Source: Podarcis liolepis (lineage: Eukaryota). From it: DNA of 64,000 nucleotides. The stretch lies in assembly GCA_965112155.1 (NCBI GenBank), contig OZ218108.1, one strand, 5' to 3'. Under the pieces are notes generated by a model, which searched no databases, was not told the DNA's origin, and saw only the letters and a program-made list of their open reading frames with translations. Shown here in pieces: positions 4,375-62,370 of the stretch; positions within the stretch are counted from its first letter, which is position 1; each line of letters opens with the position of its first letter. The position numbers were made by a program, and so were the translations under genes.

Positions 4375-5730
4375 TCTCTTCCTTTAAATTCCTGGGAGTC
4401 CATCTTAGTGAAGACCTTACTTAGAAGATCAGTACAGCCCAGGTACCGTATTTTTCACCCCATAGGATGCACTGGCCCATAGGACACACCTAGTTTTCTT
4501 GGGGGGGGGAATAGAGAAAAAATATATTATTTCCCCCCCAGGCACGGGGCTGGGGCAGGGGAAGCACGAGCTTCCCCCGACCCCAGCCCCCAGAACAGGC
4601 AGCTCTCCGCAAGCCTTAGGAGACCGGCGCGATTTCCTGCCGGGCTCCCACGGCTTGCAGATATCTGCCTGAAGCCCAAACCAGGTCGGGGAACAGCGGG
4701 ATGGTGGCGCTGCGCCTCCCCGCTGTCCCCCAAGCTTCTGGGGCTGGGGCGAGGAGAAGCGCGCTTCTCCCCAACACCAGCCTTCAAACCACGTCGGGGG
4801 ACAGCGGGAAAACGCAATGCGCCTCCACGCTATCCCCGGAGCTTGTGGGGCTGGCGATGGGGAGAAGCGTGCTTCTCCCCTCCACCAGCCTCCAAACCAG
4901 GTCGGGGAAACGAAGCCCGGGGCGCACTGTGCAGCGCGCCCCAGGCTTTGAGATGCAGGCTGCTATCCGCAAGCCTAGGGAGCCCGACGGGAACTCCCGC
5001 GGGCTCCCAAGACTTGCTGAGAGCTTCCTGAAGCCTGGAGAGTGAGAGGGGTCGGTGCGCACTGACCCCTCTCGCTCTCCAGGCTTCAGTGAAAGCCTGC
5101 ATTCGCCCCATAGGACACACACACATTTCCCCTTCATTTTTGGAGGAGAAAAATTGCGTCCTATAGGGCGAAAAATAGGGTAGTTAGGAAGGCCCAACAG
5201 AGACTTCATTTCCTTAGGGTCGAGGGAAGAACAATATTAGACAGCAACTGATGATTTCCTTCTATCGGTTAACAATAGAAAGTGTTCTCTCGTACTGTAT
5301 TATGGTGTGGTACACTAGTTTGACAGCCATGGACAGAAAGTCCCTACAGAGGGTGGTGAAGACAGCACATGATATCATGGGCTGTCCCCTGAGTCCACTA
5401 GATGTCATCGCAGGAGACTGTTGCCTCAGAAGAGCGAGGAACATTCTCAGGGATGACTCACACCATGGCCAGCACCTTTTTAATCTCCTGACCTTGGGCA
5501 GGAGATATAGAGGCATGATAAGCTGCACCAAAAGGTTAAAGAACAGTTTCTACCTGTGGGCCGTGAGGCTGCTGAATGGAAGACAGCAACATTGCAGCTG
5601 ACGTTCGGGGTTGGTGATCATACGACAGCACACAGAGTGTTACAAGGACTGAGAGATTGGGGGGGGGGCTCATTTAATCTCACTGTAAACAAGTGGTACA
5701 GTGACAATAAAGTATTTCTATATTTCTATA
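4375..5730 (+). mobile_element. Rex1/Babar LINE 5'-truncated copy, interrupted by a MITE
   Basis: FKFLGVHLSEDL..AQV|VRKAQQRLHFLR..FYRLTIESVLSYCIMVWY..DRKSLQRVVKTA..DDSHHGQHLFNLL..GRRYR..RLKNSF..AVRLLN is the Rex1/Babar RT C-terminus. AATAAA plus (TATTTCTA) tail. 14-bp TSD TAA(A/C)GTCGCTTTGG at 4361-4374 and 5731-5744. Confidence 0.88.
4446..5180. mobile_element. Tc1/mariner-superfamily (Tc2/pogo-like) MITE with internal hairpin modules
   Basis: TIR CCGTATTTTTC(A/G)CCC(C/T)ATAGGA(T/C)GCA at both ends. TA duplication at 4444-4445 and 5181-5182. Excision restores the Rex reading frame (Q-V-V-R-K). Confidence 0.9.
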
Positions 5731-12986: not shown

Positions 12987-14989
12987 GTTATTAGTAGACC
13001 CCTATTCCTCTAACAGAGCATCCATTCCCAGAATTCCCTGGAGAGGGGTTGGTTGTTCAACCACTCTGAGTACTGAAACGTCAAATAGAACTCTTACAAC
13101 AACTCCCTTCACCCTTAACAGACTATTTTCCTATCAACAACTTTAACAGCACCTTAGAATCTGCTCATTGACCACACGAGCGTCCTCTTGGCCCTGATGG
13201 AACCTATTGTGACATGTGGCACACATCCTCACTCAACTTCTGTTATTGTGGTTTGGAAGAACCCACAAACATTCTGTAGCTTTGACCCTCTCGACAGCCT
13301 CCATGCTTGCTTCCCCACAGTTTGTTCCTGTATTTTATAGTATCTTCTTTATACAGTGCAACTATTCTTTTTTAGCCTCGGAGATACAGATACATAGATA
13401 CAGATGAGTCAAAAACTATTTATCAGCGAGTTCTTGAATAATTAGAACGTTTGGTGGAAATGCTTCTCACCGCCACCAGCATCACCATAAGAGCTCTAGC
13501 ATAACGCCTGACAAATGGAGCTTTAACTTCACAATAGGTCTCACAGCAGGCTCGAAACACGGAGAAGGACGCTGTGGGCTTTCCCCCCTTCTTATTGTCT
13601 TATTTATAGTGTGTCTTAATTGGTTCCTGGATAGGAAAATAGCCTAGTTGAGGCATTTAAAATCCTCATTAAAAACTTTGTGGAGATGATGACATAGAGG
13701 GAGTGCATGTTTGGAAGGAGAGAGCTAGGAAAGAACAGGGGCAAGTATGTGGTCCAGGTGAGATTGAAGTTAAAGTTCAGAGCAATGAACAAATTTCATA
13801 TGGGCAAGATTCAGATATAGAAAAGATTAGGAAGATGAGAAGACTTGAAATATGGTAGCCGAAGGCAAGGCCAAGCCATATGAATGACCAACAGTTCTGT
13901 CATTGAAAATGTCTCAAGAGGAAGATCTTACATCTTTCCCCCAACTTCTAGTATCATGTCCAGTTGAAGATTTGCCCTGTACATTATCATCTCTGCAGGA
14001 TCGTCTTCATTTTTTTTTTAATTAGGTGAGCATCAGTCTCCATTTTGTTACTCACACTTTTACTTGGAAAGTACAGTTTTCATTAGGCTAAAGATATTCA
14101 CTGTTCTTTGAAAAGTCAAGTTCATTTTTCACAATAATCTTGCTTTCAACTCCTAAGCTGCACATCATCAGGTCTGTAATTAGTTTGATGGACTGCTCAT
14201 ATGACTTAGCTTTGCCATGTCTGTTACAGATCATAGTATTTTTTGAAATTCAAAGTGCCTTGATCCATTTATAATTTCTTTCACACTCTCAAATTAATGT
14301 ATTACATATCTCTAGAATTTCTGGTCCTCGCACACATAATGCTGCAGAAAATATACCCTTCAAATATCTTTCCAATATGACTAACTTCAAGAAAAAGAAC
14401 AGTCAAGTTTCCAAACATTTTGTTGGGGGGGGGGGGCGAAGGATAAAGATGAATCAAGGTTTCTCATGTTTGCAATCTTACATGTAGTGTAACTTAACTG
14501 CCCAATTATCAGTCCTGATATGCTAAGTATTTAAGCTTGACTATCTAGATTTAGGTTGATTTCTTCCCCTAGAGTTTGATGACATTAACTTGATTTAGCT
14601 TAAATATGAGTGCCCATTGAAATGGTTGGTCAATAAATAGTATAGTTGTAATTTCTTGGTCCAAATCCAATGCCTAATGGCAAGGTTACATTATGATTAT
14701 ATAATGCAGTTAGCCTATTACGTTGCAACATAGGATAGGGACTTCTCTGTTGTGGTTTCCTGGCTTTAGAATTCACTTTTCCCGGAGGCATTGAAGGCAG
14801 AGACTTTAATATAAACACATTTCTGTTCTCCTAGACAATAGGAGTGAGTCCATGAGAGTCACTCTTGTTCTTGATTTCTAGACTGCTGCCATACCACACT
14901 GATTCCTATTGGTTGTTTTATTGAAATGTACTTTAAATTTAGTTGCTTTTTCATGTTGGAAACTGCCCTGGGATTACTGAAGTGATGAA

Positions 14990-15179
14990 GTTACAGGTAG
15001 GTAGCCGTGTTGGTCTGCCATAGTCAAAATAAAAAAATTCCTTCCAGTAGCACCTTAAAGACCAACTAAGTTAGTTCTTGGTGTGTATCTGAAGAAGTGT
15101 GCATGCACACGAAAGCTCATACCAAGAACTAACTTAGTTGGTCTTTAAGGTGCTACTGGAAGGAATTTTTTTATTTTGA
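14990..15179. mobile_element. Penelope-like (Poseidon-type) pseudo-LTR mini-insertion with inverted arms
   Basis: Same sequence as the pLTR at 24546-24681. Perfect 59-bp inverted repeat 15024-15082 / 15121-15179. 13-bp TSD TGAAGTGATGAAG at 14978-14990 and 15177-15189. Confidence 0.9.
15085..15122 (+). ncRNA. Minimal type I hammerhead ribozyme (Penelope type)
   Basis: GTAT-CTGAAGA-A-GTGTG(CATG)CACAC-GAAA-GC-TC-ATAC: stem I GUAU/AUAC, CUGANGA core, stem II, GAAA, palindromic AGCU in place of stem III. Predicted cleavage after C15118. Confidence 0.85.
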
Positions 15180-15468
15180 AGTGATGAAGGACAGTCTATA
15201 AAACTGATTGGTGAATAAATAAATAAATAAATAAATAAATAAATATTTCCTGTGTTATAAGTTGGTGAGGGAGAAGTAGGCTAAGAGCTCATGTCTGAGG
15301 ACTATTACCTGCCCTGCACCCGGAGAGCCCTATGCACTCTGGGCACAGAGTGGCACCTGGTGCTTTGGATAGAGATTGAATCAGGTAGCAAATGCAACAG
15401 CATTCTTAGGGATATTCATGGCGGCTATGCACTACCTCCAAATTCAAAGGCAGTTTTATGTGGAAAAG

Positions 15469-16352: not shown

Positions 16353-17519
16353 TTATGGAACAAGAGTAGAGGGGCATTAACATCATTTGCTGCCCATGGA
16401 CTTTCCATAAGAATCTGGCTGGTCAAGGAGGAAAAGGATACGGGACTAGATGAACCTTTGGTCTGATCCAAAAGGGCTCTTACATTCCTAAGGACACAGC
16501 AGCATTTTAAACTTTTGAATGGCCCTAAGGGAAAATTGCAAGCTCCTTTTCTCATCTGTTGCATCTTAGCACTTCTGCTGGAGACCAGGAGTAGGAGGCT
16601 AAACCTCTAAAACGTCAGACTGAACCTGGAGACTTGGCAACTCTTGGAAGGAATAGCACAGAAACATTACCCTAGATGTGAAACTCTTCCTCCAGCAAAG
16701 TTGGACTAGAGAATTAATGGGAGCAAATCTAAGGGAAACGGTTCAGGCTTAAATAATTAAAAGTTATATGTAATGGAGATTTCCCCCCACCCCCATAAAA
16801 TTCCCTTTAAAAAATGTGGAGATAGATTATGGTATTTTTATTCAGACATCTGAGGCTCTGCACCACTATCCTTAGCATTCTTAAGGTTCGTCCCAATCTG
16901 ACTTGTATCTATTGAGTAAAATAGCAACAGTTTAATCTCTTTTGATTAGCAACTGAACACAGCTACTAACTGCAAAGCAAGATGCTTCAAGGCTGGGAGA
17001 ACTGCCACCATTTTATTTCTTCTAGGTGGAGTAGAGGGTATTGTTGGAGGTCACAGTGGCAGGGTGAGCAATTCCCTAGCTTAAATGGGATTTTGATAAC
17101 CCTATAACCTTCCACTAAAATAACATATAATGTGGCTTATTTTTCTTTCTTTCATGTTACACCAAATACTAGGCAGGAATTGGTGATAACCAAACCCCCC
17201 CCCCCTCATTGCACATCCTTCCAGTATTGATTAGCATGGTTCCACACTCAACAAAGATCTCTGAAAGGTCCCATCTGTCTGGCAAGCAGTGTTTCACCCA
17301 ATGATTTGTATCAGTTTCTGCAAAGCTGGGTAAAGATTGGAAAGGTTGGATGCCTTTTATGCACAACAAGCCCTGAAAAGGCTGTTAATATTGCTCATGA
17401 CTTAGTTTATTATCATTTCCTGTTGTAGCAACGCCTTCCACCCTGGCCTAATTACAGCTGGCCTTCCTCATTGGGTACATGGCGGGTTTATAAGTCGTCT
17501 GATTATTCAGCAAAAATTA

Positions 17520-18162
17520 CCGTATTTTTCGCTCTATATGACGCACCTTTTCCCCTCCAAAAATTAAGGGGAAATGTGTGTGCATCCTATGGAGCGAATG
17601 CAGGCTCCTTGGCTTCAGCAATAGCACTCCCTCCACGCTCCGGAGGCTTCACATTGCTTTCACTGAAGCCTGGAGAGCGAGGGGTCGGTGCGCACCAACC
17701 CCTCTCGCTCTCCAGGCTTCAGGGATAGCTGCCTGAAGCCTTTGGAGTCCAGCGCGAGTTTCCGCTACATTCCAGAGGCTTCGGGTTCCTTTCACTGAAG
17801 CCAGGAGATTCTTGCTCTCCCGGTTTCAGCAAAAGGAACCTGAAGCCTGTGGAGCGCAGCGGGAACTCCCACTACGCTACGGAGGCTTCGAGTTGCCTTC
17901 ACTGAAGGCGACTGAACGCACCTTGAACGCACTGAATGCACCTTGTTTTAGAGGGGGAGAACAAGGGGAAAAAATTCTCCCCCTCTCTGAGCAGCGCCCC
18001 TTCAGCGAAGCGGCAGGAGAAATGGAAGGGGCTCAGTTTCTTCTGCCGCTTCGCTGATGGGGCACTGAGCAGAGAGGGGGAGATTTTTTTCCTTCTCATT
18101 CTCCCCCTCTAAAACAAGGTGTGTCCTATGGTCGGGTGCGTCCTATAGAGTGAAAAATATGG
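17520..18162. mobile_element. Tc2/pogo-like MITE related to 4446-5180, opposite orientation
   Basis: TIR CCGTATTTTTCGCTCTAT / ATAGAGTGAAAAATATGG. TA at 17518-17519 and 18163-18164. Shares terminal ~90 bp and the GTGCGCAC-centred palindrome with 4446-5180. Confidence 0.88.
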
Positions 18163-18599
18163 TATATACTGCTTATATGAATATATTCTAGGGGGAGATT
18201 TATGGCTGTGCGAGCAGTTTGCATGCACTAGGTGCTAAGTCTCAAAACCCAGTGAGTGAGGCACTGAGCTTTGAGAAGGAGGCATGAGGCTCTTACACAG
18301 TCCTCCTCTTTCCTAAAGCCCTATATATCACTTTCCCAGCTTTGGGAAGGAGGCGGGAGATTTCTAGGATCCTGCCAGAGCCCTCACACCTCCTTCCCAA
18401 AACCGGACACCTCCTTACCCACCTTTGGGAAGGCAATGCGAGGACCCGGGGGGGGGTGGGGGTTGGCTTTGCACAGGACACCATAGTACCCAATTCCACC
18501 ACTGTCATTTCCCGATGATGTTTTAAAGGAATGAATGCAGAACCAAAACAAATGGCCACTACTATGATTTTTTCCATATAGTTCTCTCGCCAAGTAACG

Positions 18600-21460: not shown

Positions 21461-23677
21461 GGACATTCCTGATACCTTTACAAAAATTACTGTAAGTCCT
21501 CTGTCAGACGTATGGGGCTGTTTTGCACTCTCCTGAGAAAACATACAAAAGGAAAGCCGAGCTTGCTCACAGCAGCACTTACTTGGGCATCTTGTGTGCA
21601 GCCAGCAAGCACTTGAAGCCTGGAGAGAGTATTATCCTGTCAGGATTATGGATGTTTCCACTGCCCCAGAGACCAAAGGAGACTGCCTGGCTGACCCACA
21701 AAAGACAGACTCAGTCCCTTTCCAATGCTTTATTATTACACACATAAGTATAGGTTCCCCTAGCACACAAATCTTAACACTAATAATCTAGCAGCCGATA
21801 ATATAAATTTACTCGATCAGTCTGAAAACACTCTGGCTGGTTGCTCAGACCAACCAGAGGGCAGACATCTTACCAAACGCTGCAGTGAAATGGGTGCCAG
21901 GAGAAATCTGAAGAGCTGTTTCATGGTAAAACACAGGGGGCTTTTAAAGGGTTAGAGCTTGATGTCCCCAATAAGTTGGTCAGATGATGAAGTTCAGTAT
22001 AAATTGCCTTGGGCTTAATGGAAAAGGAGATTCCTAAATTAATCTATTAATTATTATTAGTAGTAGTAATAATAATTTAGTAGTAGCAGTTTAGTTGGAG
22101 TAGTAGTAATAAATGGCTGAGTTGCTCTTCAGTAAAGCCCTCTTTAAAATACTGGTATATATAACAGACAAAAGCCCAAACATGGACTGCTGTAACACAG
22201 AGGAGGTGTTTATTGTGCAACCTATAATCATTCGTCTGTTGCATCAGCAAAGACTGGTTCCAAGGGTGGCTGAATTATTTATTCAAGAGTCAGAAACTGC
22301 ATTGTAAGCCACAGAGGGGGAGAAACGGTCTTGAACAGTAGCCACCTGGAGAAAGCACTGTTATTGCATTCATACTCAGGAGAGCTTCATTTGCAAATTG
22401 GGAGGGTTTACAAAAGCATCATGGGAGTAGAGTTCAGGTGCTGTAAGCTGCCTGTCTTAAGAGTTAGCTGATGTTTTGGGAAATTAATTTGGAGGATGTT
22501 TGGAACGTGGCTCCGCTTTTTTTCCCCCTTTAAAAGGAGGAATCTGCCTAAGAATTCACACAGGCTTTCTTAAAAAGCACAATAATGCTTCTTTACGAAA
22601 CAAAAAGCCACTATTCCAAACCGAAAAAAGAGGGTGAGGTTGGGGGCTCTCTTATCTGACAACAATTGAAAATTGACTATGGTTGTCACAAATTCGAATG
22701 CAAAGCTTCCTTCTCTGAAACCTAATCCACGGTATCAAGTTGGGCTTCCTACAGAGGATTGCTAGCAAAATGACAAGAGAGAATCCATGCTTATTAAAAA
22801 CGCAGAACAACCTTGCTAAGCCGTACACCTTATGATTCACCAGACGAAAGCGCTCTCTAATTCTTAGCAAATATTGTACAGCTAAAAAATCTAGAAAGGT
22901 GTTCCATTTCCAACATGCCCTCTTTATTGTGGTGTCCCTCTCTTTATTCAAAAGTTCAAACACTCTCAAACGTGGGGTGTTTTAACCCACTTGAGCGTGT
23001 GACACTTGGCTTAAAGCTGTGAGAATCCAGAAGGAGCCACACCAGGTTTTTGGAAGATCACCCCTTCTACTGAGGTGGGCATGCCTCCCAGATTTATTAC
23101 ATTCTTATTCCAGCTTGTCTCCAGCTTGTGATGATCTTCACAATCATCCAGTAAAGTAGGGGAGGCTAAAATTCTTCTTTTTTTGCTCTGGCAAGCCTAC
23201 TCAGATGTGTACATCTGACATTTTAATATCTAATTTTATTTTATAGTGTATGCGTTTTTAAAACAGCTGATTTCATTAATATTTTGTCATTTTTTTAGAT
23301 CAACTTGTGTTTAAAATCTTCTTTTATTTGTATTTTTAATGTATATTCTATGTAAACTGCTGAGGGGTTTTGATTATTAAGCGGTGTTTAAATCCTGTTA
23401 AATAAAATAAAGATACTGGAGTCACATTTGCACATTATGCTGAGCTATAGTGAAGACACAACAAGCTTTGTAAGCTAAACAAACCGTGGCTTATGTTAAG
23501 CTGCAGAGCTAGGCTTGGATGATCAAACAAACCATGTGTATTTACTATGTAAAATGTTAGTAAATCATGGCTTAGTGTTATGTGCAAACCAGTCCAATGA
23601 CTGTCCAAAGGTTACTCAAAATAAAAAAAATCCTTCCAGTAGCACCTTAGAGACCAACTACCGTAAGTTTGTTATTG

Positions 23678-23715
23678 GTAGGAGCTTTCGTGTGCATGCA
23701 CACTTCTTCAAATAC
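23678..23715 (-). ncRNA. Degenerate hammerhead ribozyme in the sense pLTR
   Basis: The - strand reads GTAT-TTGAAGA-A-GTGTGCATGCACAC-GAAA-GCTC-CTAC: C3>U core mutation and a stem I mismatch. Confidence 0.7.
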
Positions 23716-23861
23716 ACTGAAATAGAAGTCACCAGACCCTTATATATACCGTAGTGAGAAGGTGGAGAGGGGTATTAGGTGTGGTAAACCTGTTGACGAC
23801 TGTTAAGGACTGCAATTGGTCTTACAGGAAAAAGCAAGGAGTGAGATGGCTAAAAATAGCT

Positions 23862-24494
23862 TTATCGTGTATAATGAGATAAGAATCCAATGTCTCTATT
23901 CAGACCAGGTCTCTCCATGGTTTTAAGTTTGGTAATAAGTTGCAATTCAGCAACTTCTCTTTCCAGTCTATTTCTGAAATTCTTTTGTAATATGACAGCT
24001 ACTTTGAGATCTTGCATAGAATGTCCTGGGAGATTGAAGTGTTCTCCTACTGGTTTCTCTGTCTTGTGATTCCTGATGTCAGATTTATGTCCATTTATCC
24101 TTTGGCATAGGGTTTGGCCTGTTTGTCCAATACAGAGAGTTGAAGGGCACTGTTGGCATTTGATAGCATGCACAATGTTAGAAGATGAGCAATTAAATAG
24201 TCCTGAGATGGTATGTTTGATGTCGTTGAGGCCAGTAATGGTGTTGTCCGGGAATATGTGGCAGCAAAGTTGGCATCTGGGTTTATTGCAGGCTCTGGTA
24301 CCGGTGTCCATGTTAAGTCTGGTTGTTGTATTATTGTGGGTGAGGAGTTGTTTAAGATTGGGTGACTGTCTGTAGGCAATGAAAGGTCTTTCTCCCAGAG
24401 CTTGAGAAAGAGAACTGTCATTGAGAGGTTGTAGATCTCTGACAATGCATTGAACTGTTTTAATTTGGGAGCTGTATGTGATTACTAGTGGTGT
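23862..24494 (-). pseudogene. Penelope ORF C-terminus: linker with Cys cluster plus GIY-YIG endonuclease (degenerate)
   Basis: TPLVITY..RPFIAYRQSPNLKQLL..CNKPRCQLC..FNCSSSNIVHAIKCQQC..LCIGQTGQTL.QRINGH..KPVGEHFNLPGHS..REVAELQLI.KLKT..PGLNRD. Both motif tyrosines are replaced (VHAI, LCIG). RT domain absent. Confidence 0.9.
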
Positions 24495-24547
24495 ACCCCT
24501 CCCCACCCTCTCACTATATATAAGGGTCTGTTGACTTCTGTTTCAGT

Positions 24548-24585
24548 GTATCTGAAGAAGTGTGCATGCACACGAAAGCTCATAC
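24548..24585 (+). ncRNA. Minimal type I hammerhead ribozyme (intact) in the inverted pLTR
   Basis: Identical 38-nt motif to 15085-15122: GTAT CTGAAGA A GTGTGCATGCACAC GAAA GCTC ATAC. Confidence 0.85.
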
Positions 24586-26185
24586 CAATAAAAAACTTAG
24601 TTGGTCTCTAAGGCGCTACTGGAAGGAATTTTTTTATTTTGTTTTGACTACGGCAGACCAACACGGCTACCTACCTGTAACAATGGTCACTCAGTGAGAT
24701 TTATGATCAATGAGGATTTGAACCTGGCTCTCTCTACTCTTAGTCTAACACTCTAACCGTTATGCAATAACTGCCTCTATTTGTGTTCAATAAAATGTGG
24801 TAATAGAAGTGCAGTTAAGGCTTTTGCATGATAATGCTTTTTTTTTTTAACGAGATATGTAGTGCATTCCCTAAAACGCACACTGGCTGTGCTAATTAGC
24901 ACATTGTAATTTAAATAGCTTAAATGTACAATTATTTCTATTATTCACATTTGCTCTTTCAGGACCACTTCATGAAGCAAACTGTGTCATCTTTAACGGC
25001 CATGAAACTGGATTTTTCTCAGCTGGTGTCTTCATTCCTTTAATTGAACTATTTAGCATTCATACATAGAAATGATTCGTTTGACACAAGCCACATAATT
25101 TATATTTCAATAGTCAGCTTTGCTATCAAATAACTGGCGTTGTTTGGAAACAGGGCTTCCATTTCTTGTCACTTTTGTACCTTCCCACCACTGGAACATA
25201 ACTTAAAAATCAGAGTCACACATCTATTGGGATACTCCACTTCACAAGTAACACCCACCCACCCACCCACACAAGCAAACATATCTCACAGCTTTTGGAG
25301 AACTATTATTGATTTTATTATATGCTGAGTTTGGAGATGGCTTGTGCAGTAGATTATTCTGCCTGGATTATTTTTTCCTTCAGTAGATGTATTTTGAATT
25401 GAAATAAACATTATCTCTGAAAATTAACCATATATCTTGTGTATGAATGCAATGGGACTCTTATAAGTGCATATTCAAAATTGCTCCAGAAACATGTCAC
25501 TGGTTAAATTAGCTATATAATTTGACATGGAATTTTATTTTGAATTAAAGTTGAAAATACAGGCAACAAATACTCAAAATACATGTGTTTACTACTCAAC
25601 TATGCCATGGTTCAGAAGTAATGCTAAATTAGGGATAGCCAACATGGGGTTCTGAAGATGTATTGGGCTACAACTCCCATCATCCCCGACCAATGAATAT
25701 GCTGACTGAAGCTGTGAGAGCTGGAATCAAAAAGGTCTGGAGGGTACCACATTGACCATCCCTGTGCTAAACCATAGTTTCGTGTTACCTACAAGAGCAT
25801 GGCCATGAGGAGGAGACGGGACACTTTTGCTTCTGTTTTCAGTTGACTGGTTTCTTACTGTTTAAATTGGGAACTATGGTCGGTGCCAACTATAGTTTAT
25901 TGAAAGAAGCCGCAATTATCATTCATGGTTCAATGTTGGCTTATTTCAATCAATAGCTATTAATTATCTCAGGTTGTCCAGATTTGGATGGAACAAGAAA
26001 CTGTGGTTAGTTGAAAATAGAATCAAAGCTTCCCATCTCCTCCCTCTTGCAGCTGCAGTAGAGAAGGGGAGAGGAGTGTGCGTCAGTCCAAGGCTAGTGT
26101 GTGCAATGCTAAACTCTGGTTGGGTTTTATGTTGAATCTAAGACACAGATGCACCCATCACAGACTCTACTAATTGTCCTCACAG

Positions 26186-50111: not shown

Positions 50112-50369
50112 GAAGAACATTCTTCGTTTCTTGGATGCAGAAAGAGATGTCTCAGTAGTCAAAAGCAGCTTCAAGCCCGGAGATGTAATCCATTACGTGC
50201 TAGACAGACGCCGCACACTAAATATTTCTCAGGATTTACACAGTCTTCTTCCTGAAGTTTCACCGATGAAGAACCGCCGATTTAAGTCATGTGCTGTTGT
50301 AGGAAATTCTGGTATTCTCCTTGATAGTGGCTGTGGAAAAGAGATTGACAACCACGAGTTTGTTATAAG
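50112..50369 (+). CDS. ST8SIA4: ST8SIA4 coding exon 3 (polybasic region, first part of sialylmotif L)
   Basis: Acceptor tacAG at 50110-50111. Encodes (R)[85 protein letters not shown](R). [10 protein letters not shown] is sialylmotif L. Donor AG|GTGAGC. 258 nt. Confidence 0.98.
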
Positions 50370-51291
50370 GTGAGCATTCATCTCTCACTTGACAGGTTGT
50401 CTTTTACTTCAGCAGTAATGAACACAAATGTTTTAACTTGGAACAATGATTTGGAATTGCTAAATGATAACTTTCACTGTGTGGTGCCCAGAGTTAAATA
50501 TATTTCACAATAAAAAGAACAGGTCCGTCTTTTATATTGCAAATGAGAATTTGCACTGTTGGAGACCGCAGTGAGATTTGTAATATTGTTTTGTAGGTTC
50601 TGGTTTTGCTCTTTATGCAGGCAAAAATCACTATTCCAATAGCAAGCTGGCTCTGCAAAATGAAAATGTTTTCATTTTCTCCTTCCTGCCAATAGTCATA
50701 GTAGAAAATCACCACCTTTACTTATTATATATGCACTGTATGGGGTACAATTTATGTGAAATGCATTGAGGATTAGCCAGATAGCTCCCATTAAGGGAAT
50801 TGGAAGTCACACATCTACACCCTTGTGTGCTGCACCGAAAATATATTCTGGCTGCATCTGCAAATGTATTCACATATTTTAGTTTAAATAATTAGTTTGT
50901 TTGTCCAAAACAAAGTGTTCTACTTTGTCAAAGGTCAGCGAGGAATTGAAAGGAGTTGTGGGCACTGTTTAATAGACTGTCACGTACGAATGTAAAACAA
51001 GTTTTAGTTGAAAATACGAGGCATTGGGTGCCATCCAGAACCATTAAAAATCAATCTGAGTCTTGCTGTTGGCTTGAGTGGAATATGGTTTATTCCCACT
51101 ATGCTTTTAGCAAGTCACAGTTTTCCATGCCTAATAGAACGGACATGATCCTGCCACTTCCATCTGTCAGAATAACATTTTCTCAGCTCTTGTATTGAAA
51201 TCAGTGGGCCTAAGTCTGCAGTCCTAAGCAAGTTCAGTATTGTGAAGGCTCGAGTTCAGTGGGACTTACTTCCGAGTTTGTATACCTAAGT

Positions 51292-60388: not shown

Positions 60389-60592
60389 GAGTTCAGTGGG
60401 ATTTAAGATGCTTCTGGATTTCACCCAATATTTTTTAGATGACTAGATGCCACACAGTGCTTTGTGAAAGCATGTGGGACGCCACAGCCTTGCACGTTCA
60501 TTTTCAGCCTTTATTTCACGCACACCTTTTTATCTGAGTTAATGTTTCATATTTATTATTTTATTTTTTTCCATTAATCTCTTCCTCTTCAG

Positions 60593-60886
60593 GTGCAATC
60601 TAGCTCCCGTGGTGGAGTATGCTGCCGATGTGGGGACTAAATCAGATTTTATTACCATGAACCCATCAGTTGTACAAAGAGCATTTGGAGGCTTTCGGAA
60701 TGAGAGTGACAGAGAGAAATTTGTGCATAGGCTATCCATGCTGAATGACAGTGTCCTTTGGATCCCTGCTTTCATGGTCAAAGGCGGAGAGAAGCATGTG
60801 GAGTGGGTTAATGCATTAATCCTTAAGAATAAATTGAAAGTGCGAACTGCCTATCCATCACTGAGACTTATTCATGCTGTCAGAGG
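60593..60886 (+). CDS. ST8SIA4: ST8SIA4 coding exon 4 (end of sialylmotif L, polysialyltransferase domain)
   Basis: Polypyrimidine tract and cAG at 60591-60592. Encodes (R)[97 protein letters not shown](G). Donor GG|GTAAGT. 294 nt. The final exon (sialylmotifs S/VS) is not in the window. Confidence 0.98.
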
Positions 60887-62370
60887 GTAAGTGTCTGGAA
60901 AAGACTGGCCTGTCCTTGGCACAATAGAACTCATAACTAAAATTTTCACTAGAGTGAAAGAATAGCACTGGAAAGGTTTATGATAATTCTGTTCTTACCA
61001 CAATGGAGTATGCTTTCGATAAAGTCATGCTTGTTTGCCTGAAAACGTTTCCCACTCATTTAGTCCAGGCAGAGGCAAACATTGGCAATGATTTGATTTG
61101 GTGACCTCCCTTTCCTCTTTTTATGGGACGGAGCCACTTTATGAGGAATTATTTGAAATCTTCTAATTTATAACAGAACCAGCTAATCCCAGTATTAAAC
61201 ACTCTTATTTGAAAGTTGTGTTTCTGTCCTCCAGCTGTATGCGTTAAATTTCTTCATCTGAAACAGGCCTTTAGTCGCCATAATTCTCCTGTACAATCAA
61301 GCAAATGGATAGTCTTAACAGGCCAGACGTGGAGTACCTCTTCGTGATTTGTTTTTCTCTCAATCCTTCTTGTACCTCTTTTTTAAATTCTCCCCAAAAG
61401 TTTCTGTGTCAATTTAGAAAATATAGACAAAGTTGCTATTCTAATTTCAGCTTACTTGGTTGTGTAAAAATCATGTCTAGCTCCTATTGCCCTAGTTCCT
61501 CTGTTTATGCATTAAGAATTGCATTAGTCATTTTGTCACAAAAGTCGAATTCTTGTCTGTCGTGATGTATTAAGTCTTCCTTAGAGACACTTCTTTCTAG
61601 GATTTATTTCTTCATTGTGCTGCATTGCTGTGCTGTGTGTTTTCCTGTTTCGCTGTTTCCTCTTTTCTTTTTTAAAAAATGGTATCATAGCATATTTGTG
61701 GCTAGAATTAGTAGGTTTTTCAGTCCATTAAGCATTGCTTGCTTATTAAATGGGAGATACCCTGTGGATTGAAGATGCTTTCTGAAATGATAGGATTTTC
61801 ATACTGAACTTGCTGTCAGTATTTGTGCCCTGTGCAAATTTAACTGTCAAGTATGTAGTGGGTTAGATGCAGAGAAATGCATGCATAAGGAACTGGAAGA
61901 AGCAGGCTTTAATACCCCTCCTCCCTGGCAGAAAACCTCCCCCATGAGCTGTGGCACAGGGGTCTGAGAGAGCAGGGAATACCTGAAAACAGAGGTTGCC
62001 TTCAGCCATTTTTTTCATAGCCGCTCTTTTTCCTCTCAGCCCACTGCTTTATCCCATCCAGCAATGTCCCCCGATCCCCTGGGAAGCCGCCTCCAAGAGC
62101 TTCTGGTGGAGGAGGTCCTATTAAGCACACATTTCTCTGGATCCAACAGAATATTTTCTTCATTGATAGAACGTTTGAATGATATTAATCTAATACAGGT
62201 GGTGACCATATTGTTCAGGGGGTTCCATTTCCAGTCCCTGTGCATGTCGGGTGTGTTCATAAGCCTGCCCCATTCCACCCCGTTCTGCCCTCTTCCGAGT
62301 CCAAAATAACTCATGTGTCGGCAATCACATGTCAATTGGACGCACCTGAAATGTTCGCTGCTTGTATAAA

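Follow-up and report, generated by a model that had tools for sequence, protein, structure and literature searches.

The 64,000-nucleotide stretch of Podarcis liolepis DNA analysed here (GCA_965112155.1, contig OZ218108.1; hereafter the window) contains, at 14978-15189, a long hairpin whose loop carries a hammerhead ribozyme motif and which is flanked by a short target-site duplication (TSD). The locus raises the questions of which element it derives from, how two copies of the same short segment came to be joined head to head beside a predicted ribozyme cut, and whether the structure is a single insertion or a member of a self-propagating family. Our analysis indicates that it is probably a short insertion of the end of a Neptune-type Penelope-like element, in which the two nicked strands of one target each primed a cDNA and the two cDNAs were joined head to head, and that the resulting copy is predicted to be inert.

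Anatomy of the insertion and its parent family

Positions within the pLTR are numbered from +1, which corresponds to 15085 in the hairpin and to 24548 in a related insertion found in the same window (the sister copy). The features of the hairpin locus are the following:

14978..14990, plus strand: left TSD, identified as a sequence repeat; its last base is common to the tail end
14990..15023, minus strand: 34-nt Penelope tail, with 1 mismatch relative to the sister end at 24648-24681; 3' ends of the family pile up at 24681
15024..15082, minus strand: inverted arm, antisense pLTR from +37 to +95, identified by repeat comparison
15081..15085, no strand: head-to-head junction, likely a microhomology of 2 nt, or of 4/5 nt when one mismatch is counted, which the self-complementarity of stem I would create, as the 62-nt repeat (98%) suggests
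15083..15179, plus strand: sense arm, pLTR from -2 to +95, without tail, beginning at the family's 5'-end pile-up
15085..15122, plus strand: minimal type I hammerhead motif, predicted cut 15118/15119, checked against the motif description in PMC4209133
15177..15189, plus strand: right TSD, identified as a sequence repeat; its first 3 bases are common to the element end

The segment 15024-15082 is the exact reverse complement of 15121-15179 along all 59 bp, and the two enclose a 38-nt loop, as the original prediction had stated; the repeat grows to 62 nt (15024-15085 / 15118-15179) when one mismatch is tolerated. The fold of the hairpin has a z-score of -17.6, and none of 200 shuffled sequences was equally stable. 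The proposed 13-bp TSD is likewise borne out, with a 13/13 match that is expected by chance at about 2e-5 even with a slack of +-10 nt allowed at either end; of its bases, 3 on the right and 1 on the left are shared with the element, which leaves 9 nt that are unambiguously target. The 34-nt tail of the family, missed in the first reading of the locus, is present on the inverted arm only. The description of the insertion as non-coding holds in practice, with the reservation that loop II contains an ATG followed by a stop after 9 codons; in the sister copy the frame opened by the same ATG (24566-24681) stays open through the tail, and this ATG is possibly the ORF start.

Further copies of the hairpin's end lie at 23616-23774 and 24494-24681, and together they delimit one 1.07-kb insertion, the sister copy, whose pLTRs are 89-95% identical to that of the hairpin. 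It consists of two parts:

23616..24493, minus strand: sister body, 3' part of the ORF (CX4CxxC linker and GIY-YIG-type endonuclease region) and pLTR without tail, identified by protein comparison
24494..24681, plus strand: inverted pLTR with tail, abutting the body; it starts 54 nt before +1, well away from the cut site

The sister insertion thus has the same layout as the hairpin with a different junction, and its body (24493 to 23616) lacks the tail and stops at the base where the right arm of the hairpin also ends. The body codes for 212 residues comprising the CX4CxxC linker followed by the endonuclease region. The ORF fragment itself gave no Pfam family match; it is 90% identical to P0002, which scores above the cut-off for both RVT_1 and GIY-YIG, and it has 39 longer homologues, the named ones being from a lacertid lizard (77-84%) and turtles (55-62%). 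The hairpin pLTR therefore matches the end of a family with reverse transcriptase (RT) and GIY-YIG domains, in agreement with the Penelope-like origin originally proposed. The further assignment to Poseidon has to be given up: a CX2-5CxxC linker is absent in Penelope and Poseidon according to PMC8557442, and since a CX4CxxC linker precedes the endonuclease here the parent element is, on its sequence, of Neptune type. The C-terminal GIY-YIG region with this linker is shared with the Neptune clade of reptiles, to which the family is assigned by linker rather than by an RT tree.

Two identical 5-bp insertions in the sister pLTR (23659-23665 and 23747-23753), each producing TA-CCG-TA and lying 88 bp apart, resemble the footprints left when a DNA transposon that targets TA is excised. 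Elements opening with the same seven letters occur at 4444 and 17518, where two related non-coding elements with terminal inverted repeats (4444-5190 and 17518-18164) are found, presumably MITEs of mariner/pogo type.

The arrangement is that of a known insertion unit. EN+ Penelope-like insertions comprise a pLTR, an adjacent inverted 5'-truncated copy, a tail of 30-40 bp at one end and a TSD (PMC8557442, legend of Fig. 2), and Pen2a of Adineta presents the same unit with a 9-bp TSD and with a TATA box and an initiator motif in the pLTR (PMC3846280). The hairpin shows pLTR homology, an adjacent inverted truncated copy, a 34-nt tail on one arm and a 13/13 TSD around head-to-head arms, and the pLTR of its family shares the TATA and initiator-like motifs; it differs from the published unit in that both arms are shorter than 100 nt, the ORF is absent and the 5' end coincides with a family-wide pile-up. 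It is therefore the published Penelope-like layout at minimal length, which agrees with the earlier description of it as maximally truncated. Exact-pattern scans for the family in genome, viral and metagenome contig collections returned 0 loci each, and protein-based locus searches confirmed 0 of 40 and 0 of 8 candidate stretches.

The hammerhead motif and its predicted folding

The hairpin loop and the first bases of the right arm form an intact minimal hammerhead motif of the dimer type, as the original prediction had it. Its parts include a helix I of 4 bp, a helix II formed by GUGUG/CACAC, an extra A between A9 and G10.1, the AGCU palindrome at helix III and C15118 as the cleavable base. 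Minimal hammerheads of PLEs are described as having a short helix I, an extra base after A9, the pair G10.1-C11.1 and palindromic positions 15.2-16.2, and as occurring mostly singly, or close together on opposite strands, in truncated PLEs (PMC4209133); all of the listed features are present here, whereas the local inverted arm of the hairpin is predicted to block the fold. A scan of both strands of the 64-kb window for minimal hammerheads found 2 sites, 15085 and 24548. The hammerhead family is absent from the 20 Rfam matches at E<=10, which are sub-threshold hairpin models; the miRNA matches among them were dismissed as such.

It had been suggested that the long helix extends stem I. Nearest-neighbour predictions, which include no tertiary contacts or protein, point the other way: the long helix would compete with stem I, taking two of its bases and pairing C15118, whose probability of being unpaired is predicted as 0.004 in the hairpin versus 0.815 in the sister RNA. 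The penalty for adopting the hammerhead fold is estimated at 9.05 kcal/mol in the hairpin versus 1.24 in a sister RNA starting at 24545, and at 4.25 kcal/mol when upstream sequence is added to the sister RNA. During transcription of the hairpin the predicted penalty is 5.2-5.9 right after the motif and about 9 eight bases further on. In dimers it would amount to 8.6 kcal/mol per strand in the hairpin versus 0.8 in the sister RNA; a duplex of the 4-bp helix III is predicted at -2.5. The hairpin copy is accordingly predicted to be inert, since the long helix would bury the cut site and the TATA box is missing. Stem II together with its loop (15097-15110) is perfectly palindromic over 14 nt and could serve, in addition to helix III, as another site of dimerisation.

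Ends of family copies and the likely RNA start

Reads and contigs from 4 runs were placed on the sister copy (reference 23500-24800), not on the hairpin locus. They comprise raw DNA of organism A, with only 415 reads placed, contigs of organism A (15036), and single-cell RNA (2291 reads) and contigs (13372) of organism C, a relative. Since the reference is itself inverted, other fold-back copies show as skips, and private differences of the reference at 23659-63, 23681, 23711, 24588-93 and 24637-41 shift or break alignments near both sites. The statements below refer to the 24 loose-end rows listed of 1340 and the 15 joints listed of 217, with which a small peak at the cut site or the hairpin junction would be compatible. 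Contig depths are not taken as copy numbers. A loose-end row at 24641 was dropped as a candidate "no-tail" end, because a 5-nt duplication of the reference breaks alignments there.

The short segment is in excess over the ORF: in the raw DNA the depth of the segment from the hammerhead to the end is 15x the body mean and 10.6x that of the ORF 3' end. The 3' ends of the family pile up at 24681 in 4/4 runs, and the 5' ends at -2/+1. Two features of the sister copy bear on the latter:

24517..24524, plus strand: TATA box, 31 nt before 24548; missing from the hairpin copy
24542..24548, plus strand: initiator-like motif (24542-24547), which also resembles a 3' splice site; 5' ends pile up at 24546-24548

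Among the rows listed, loose 5' ends at 24546 come from 11 DNA reads and 74 RNA reads, and those at 24548 from 94 RNA reads and from 65 contigs with long, unrelated flanks (median 255 nt, agreement 0.36). In the organism C contigs a loose-end row at the start is absent among those listed; a listed piece with long flanks does begin at 24548, which is also where several joints end. The table of positions at which many molecules begin or end is empty. No loose-end row falls at 24582-24584, the cut site, among the 24 listed of 1340, although a few such ends could be masked by a row at 24594 (10 contigs, median 9 nt).

All listed joints are borne by contigs and none by raw reads. In 12 of the 15 listed one arm ends between -2 and +9, while the partner arms spread from +7 to +107; ends at +6 to +9 probably reach further, because the reference has a private mismatch at +5. 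The 15 joints listed of 217 do not include the hairpin's own. One joint, from 23710 to 24554 within the hammerhead core, is a near-perfect fold-back with a contig depth of 1143 in X1, compared with 20-43 for the single long pieces listed, and is absent from X4; it represents either a join by microhomology that recurs or a fixed junction that was amplified.

The first base of the hammerhead, 31 nt past the TATA box, is the likely start of the family RNA, and copies beginning at the pile-up would lack the promoter because the RNA likely begins downstream of this box. The consensus of the RNA clip at 24548 resembles what we take to be a template-switch primer (18/29 letters by eye), which, if the match is real, would place RNA 5' ends there; at 24546 no such likeness was seen in the RNA clip. 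A description of a 5'-end pile-up at the start of a hammerhead was not found in the literature searched, which covered few subscription papers. The promoter of the Drosophila virilis element is described as TATA-less and internal (PMC2377424).

The geometry was compared with 120 hammerhead-like metagenome loci retrieved with a looser pattern, none of which, among those listed, has the stem II of the family. A TATA box within 60 nt upstream occurs in 0 of the 35 loci that pass the helix filter and in 3 of the 85 that fail it, so the arrangement is not general. Two of the three TATA loci, L002 and L110, represent one family, and only L002 has an RT match; this unrelated locus has the same 35-nt TATA-to-core spacing. 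At L002 (1-2978) a Penelope-like RT without an in-frame endonuclease after it is followed by a TATA box, the core of a hammerhead and another long ORF, which contains tandem peptide repeats. Another hammerhead repeat family accounts for 35 of the 120 loci and shows neither a TATA box nor a pile-up at the ribozyme edge, its 5' extents varying from 13 to 262 nt, several of them limited by contig ends in a set of loci all chosen for having the core. This dispersed minimal-hammerhead family (L006, L007, L011, L014, L020 and 30 more, mostly in JAAUYG01 contigs) has a fixed 3' end and variable 5' ends, with an apparent TSD in at least one member, L020.

Proposed formation of the head-to-head junction

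The proposed insertion would begin with a target cut staggered by about 13 nt. A bottom-strand primer would start at about +95, where 3 nt can pair with the RNA, and would be extended to the RNA 5' end to yield the sense arm; a top-strand primer would start at +129, the end of the tail, and yield the inverted arm, with its cDNA stopping near the cut site. Stem I provides a short match between the RNA start and the region of the cut, by which the two cDNA 3' ends could then anneal. Because stem I makes these two regions partly complementary (with a 3-pair extension), a junction close to the cut needs no cleavage. The survey suggests a variant of the family in which two additional letters precede 24546; if the donor was of this kind, the overlap at the junction would be 2 nt exact or 4/5.

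This scheme resembles two familiar processes. In L1 twin priming, priming of the second strand gives an inversion, and the two cDNAs usually copy different parts of the RNA, whereas here the same part would have been copied twice. In LTR retroelements, run-off to the RNA 5' end gives the short strong-stop cDNA, which is transferred; the run-off cDNA of the hairpin would be similarly short and would be integrated instead.

An experimental counterpart is the Poseidon element PAc of Anolis carolinensis, whose enzyme in vitro cuts and extends both strands, with two internal RT starts bounding the tail (PMC11167929). Two-strand priming is taken over from this Poseidon element, so that the mechanism proposed here stands by analogy. 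PAc shares with the present family a hammerhead in the pLTR with an AUG inside, two 3' ends that bound the tail and a tail end about 110 nt past the AUG; it differs in being a Poseidon without the linker and in an AUG-to-cut distance of 26 nt, compared with 16 here, and its RNA start is not mapped in the main text of PMC11167929. Contrary to two-strand priming, PMC3846280 favours self-priming on an antisense template. Self-copying of a single cDNA was rejected for the hairpin, as it cannot supply the tail. Against our reading it also counts that the RNA run comes from a relative, that the pile-up site is a good 3' splice site too, and that the inverted arm ends at +37, within 2 nt of the cut.

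The last point leads to the alternative favoured by the original prediction, in which the same two cDNAs are made and synthesis of the inverted arm ended by run-off at the 5' terminus of an RNA that had cleaved itself. In its favour, the arm stops at +37 to +39 and the cut is at +34/+35, another listed joint, found in X1 and X4, also starts at +37, and the anole hammerhead cleaves with its protein present (PMC11167929). One joint among the 15 listed is, however, about what chance provides (~5-7% per arm), the listed ends show no pile-up at the cut site, and the stem-I microhomology suffices to explain the position; in the anole, moreover, cleavage is not needed, dead ribozymes were inserted normally and no RNA-seq reads start or end at the cut, according to PMC11167929. 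Run-off on cleaved RNA is thus unlikely as an account of the junction, while for the hairpin copy alone it is possible. Considerably less probable is the other proposal made for the locus, a self-propagating hairpin mini-element with a fixed junction, retrozyme-like or MITE-like and mobilised in trans. It would accord with the large excess of the short segment over the ORF, with the high contig depth of the joint from 23710 to 24554 in X1, with the ability of pLTRs to act in trans (PMC3846280) and with the derivation of retrozymes from pLTRs (bioRxiv 10.64898/2026.07.22.740005). Yet in the tabulation of inversion junctions, a check proposed for it and carried out here on reads and contigs placed on the sister copy, the joints listed vary, do not cluster at the cut site and do not include that of the hairpin. 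The hairpin copy also lacks a tandem array and the TATA box, its ribozyme is predicted to misfold, and its asymmetric tail is what a primary insertion predicts. Non-LTR retrozymes are defined by tandem repeats with a hammerhead in at least 2 consecutive units (same preprint); the locus resembles them in being non-coding, derived from a pLTR and equipped with a type I hammerhead, but it is a single fold-back with one motif.

It is also improbable that the 5' ends accumulate at a splice acceptor, or at the terminus of a short non-autonomous master copy, instead of at a transcription start, with the hairpin formed otherwise as proposed above. A branch-like motif, a pyrimidine tract and an AG end at 24546 would fit an acceptor, and in the D. 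virilis element the intron extends up to the 5' end of helix I (PMC4209133); a start site is nevertheless favoured, because the clipped DNA flanks share no upstream exon or leader (agreement 0.36-0.55), and the canonical TATA spacing and the primer-like RNA clip mentioned above also speak for it. Perfect inverted repeats can be artefacts, and reads were placed on the sister copy only, but an assembly fold-back or a rearrangement after insertion would not supply a family tail on one arm together with a 13-bp TSD, and similar fold-back joints occur in contigs of two organisms; an origin of this kind is hardly credible.

On the two-cDNA reading, primed from both strands of one target, the locus itself is likely an ordinary dead insertion. 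As a minimal Penelope insertion unit, whose arms both fit first-strand cDNAs made from either end of a single staggered cut, the hairpin ties the two-strand extension and the two start sites observed in vitro to the inverted structures found in genomes. The pile-up provides a cheap handle on the role of the hammerhead and on the manner in which a template primed near its own 5' end yields full-length copies. We put forward a broader model only tentatively: the first base of the hammerhead would be the start of a capped RNA and would lie about 95 and about 129 nt upstream of the two priming sites, and priming in the upstream pLTR would produce short strong-stop-like run-off cDNAs, inserted singly or as fold-back pairs and outnumbering ORF-bearing copies about 10x; long copies could then arise only from tandem or circular RNA, and self-cleavage would remove both the cap and the loop-II AUG. 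If this were true, genomic mini-copies would preserve a fossil record of where the RNA starts and where priming takes place in this class of retroelements.

In its genomic setting, the hairpin lies about 35 kb before the first identified plus-strand exon of a glycosyltransferase family 29 sialyltransferase, exons of which occur at 50200-50370 and 60590-60887 and which we take to be ST8SIA-like. The inverted tail shows on the plus strand, at 14993-15001, what is presumably a strong consensus 5' splice donor, and such insertions could thereby be exonized.
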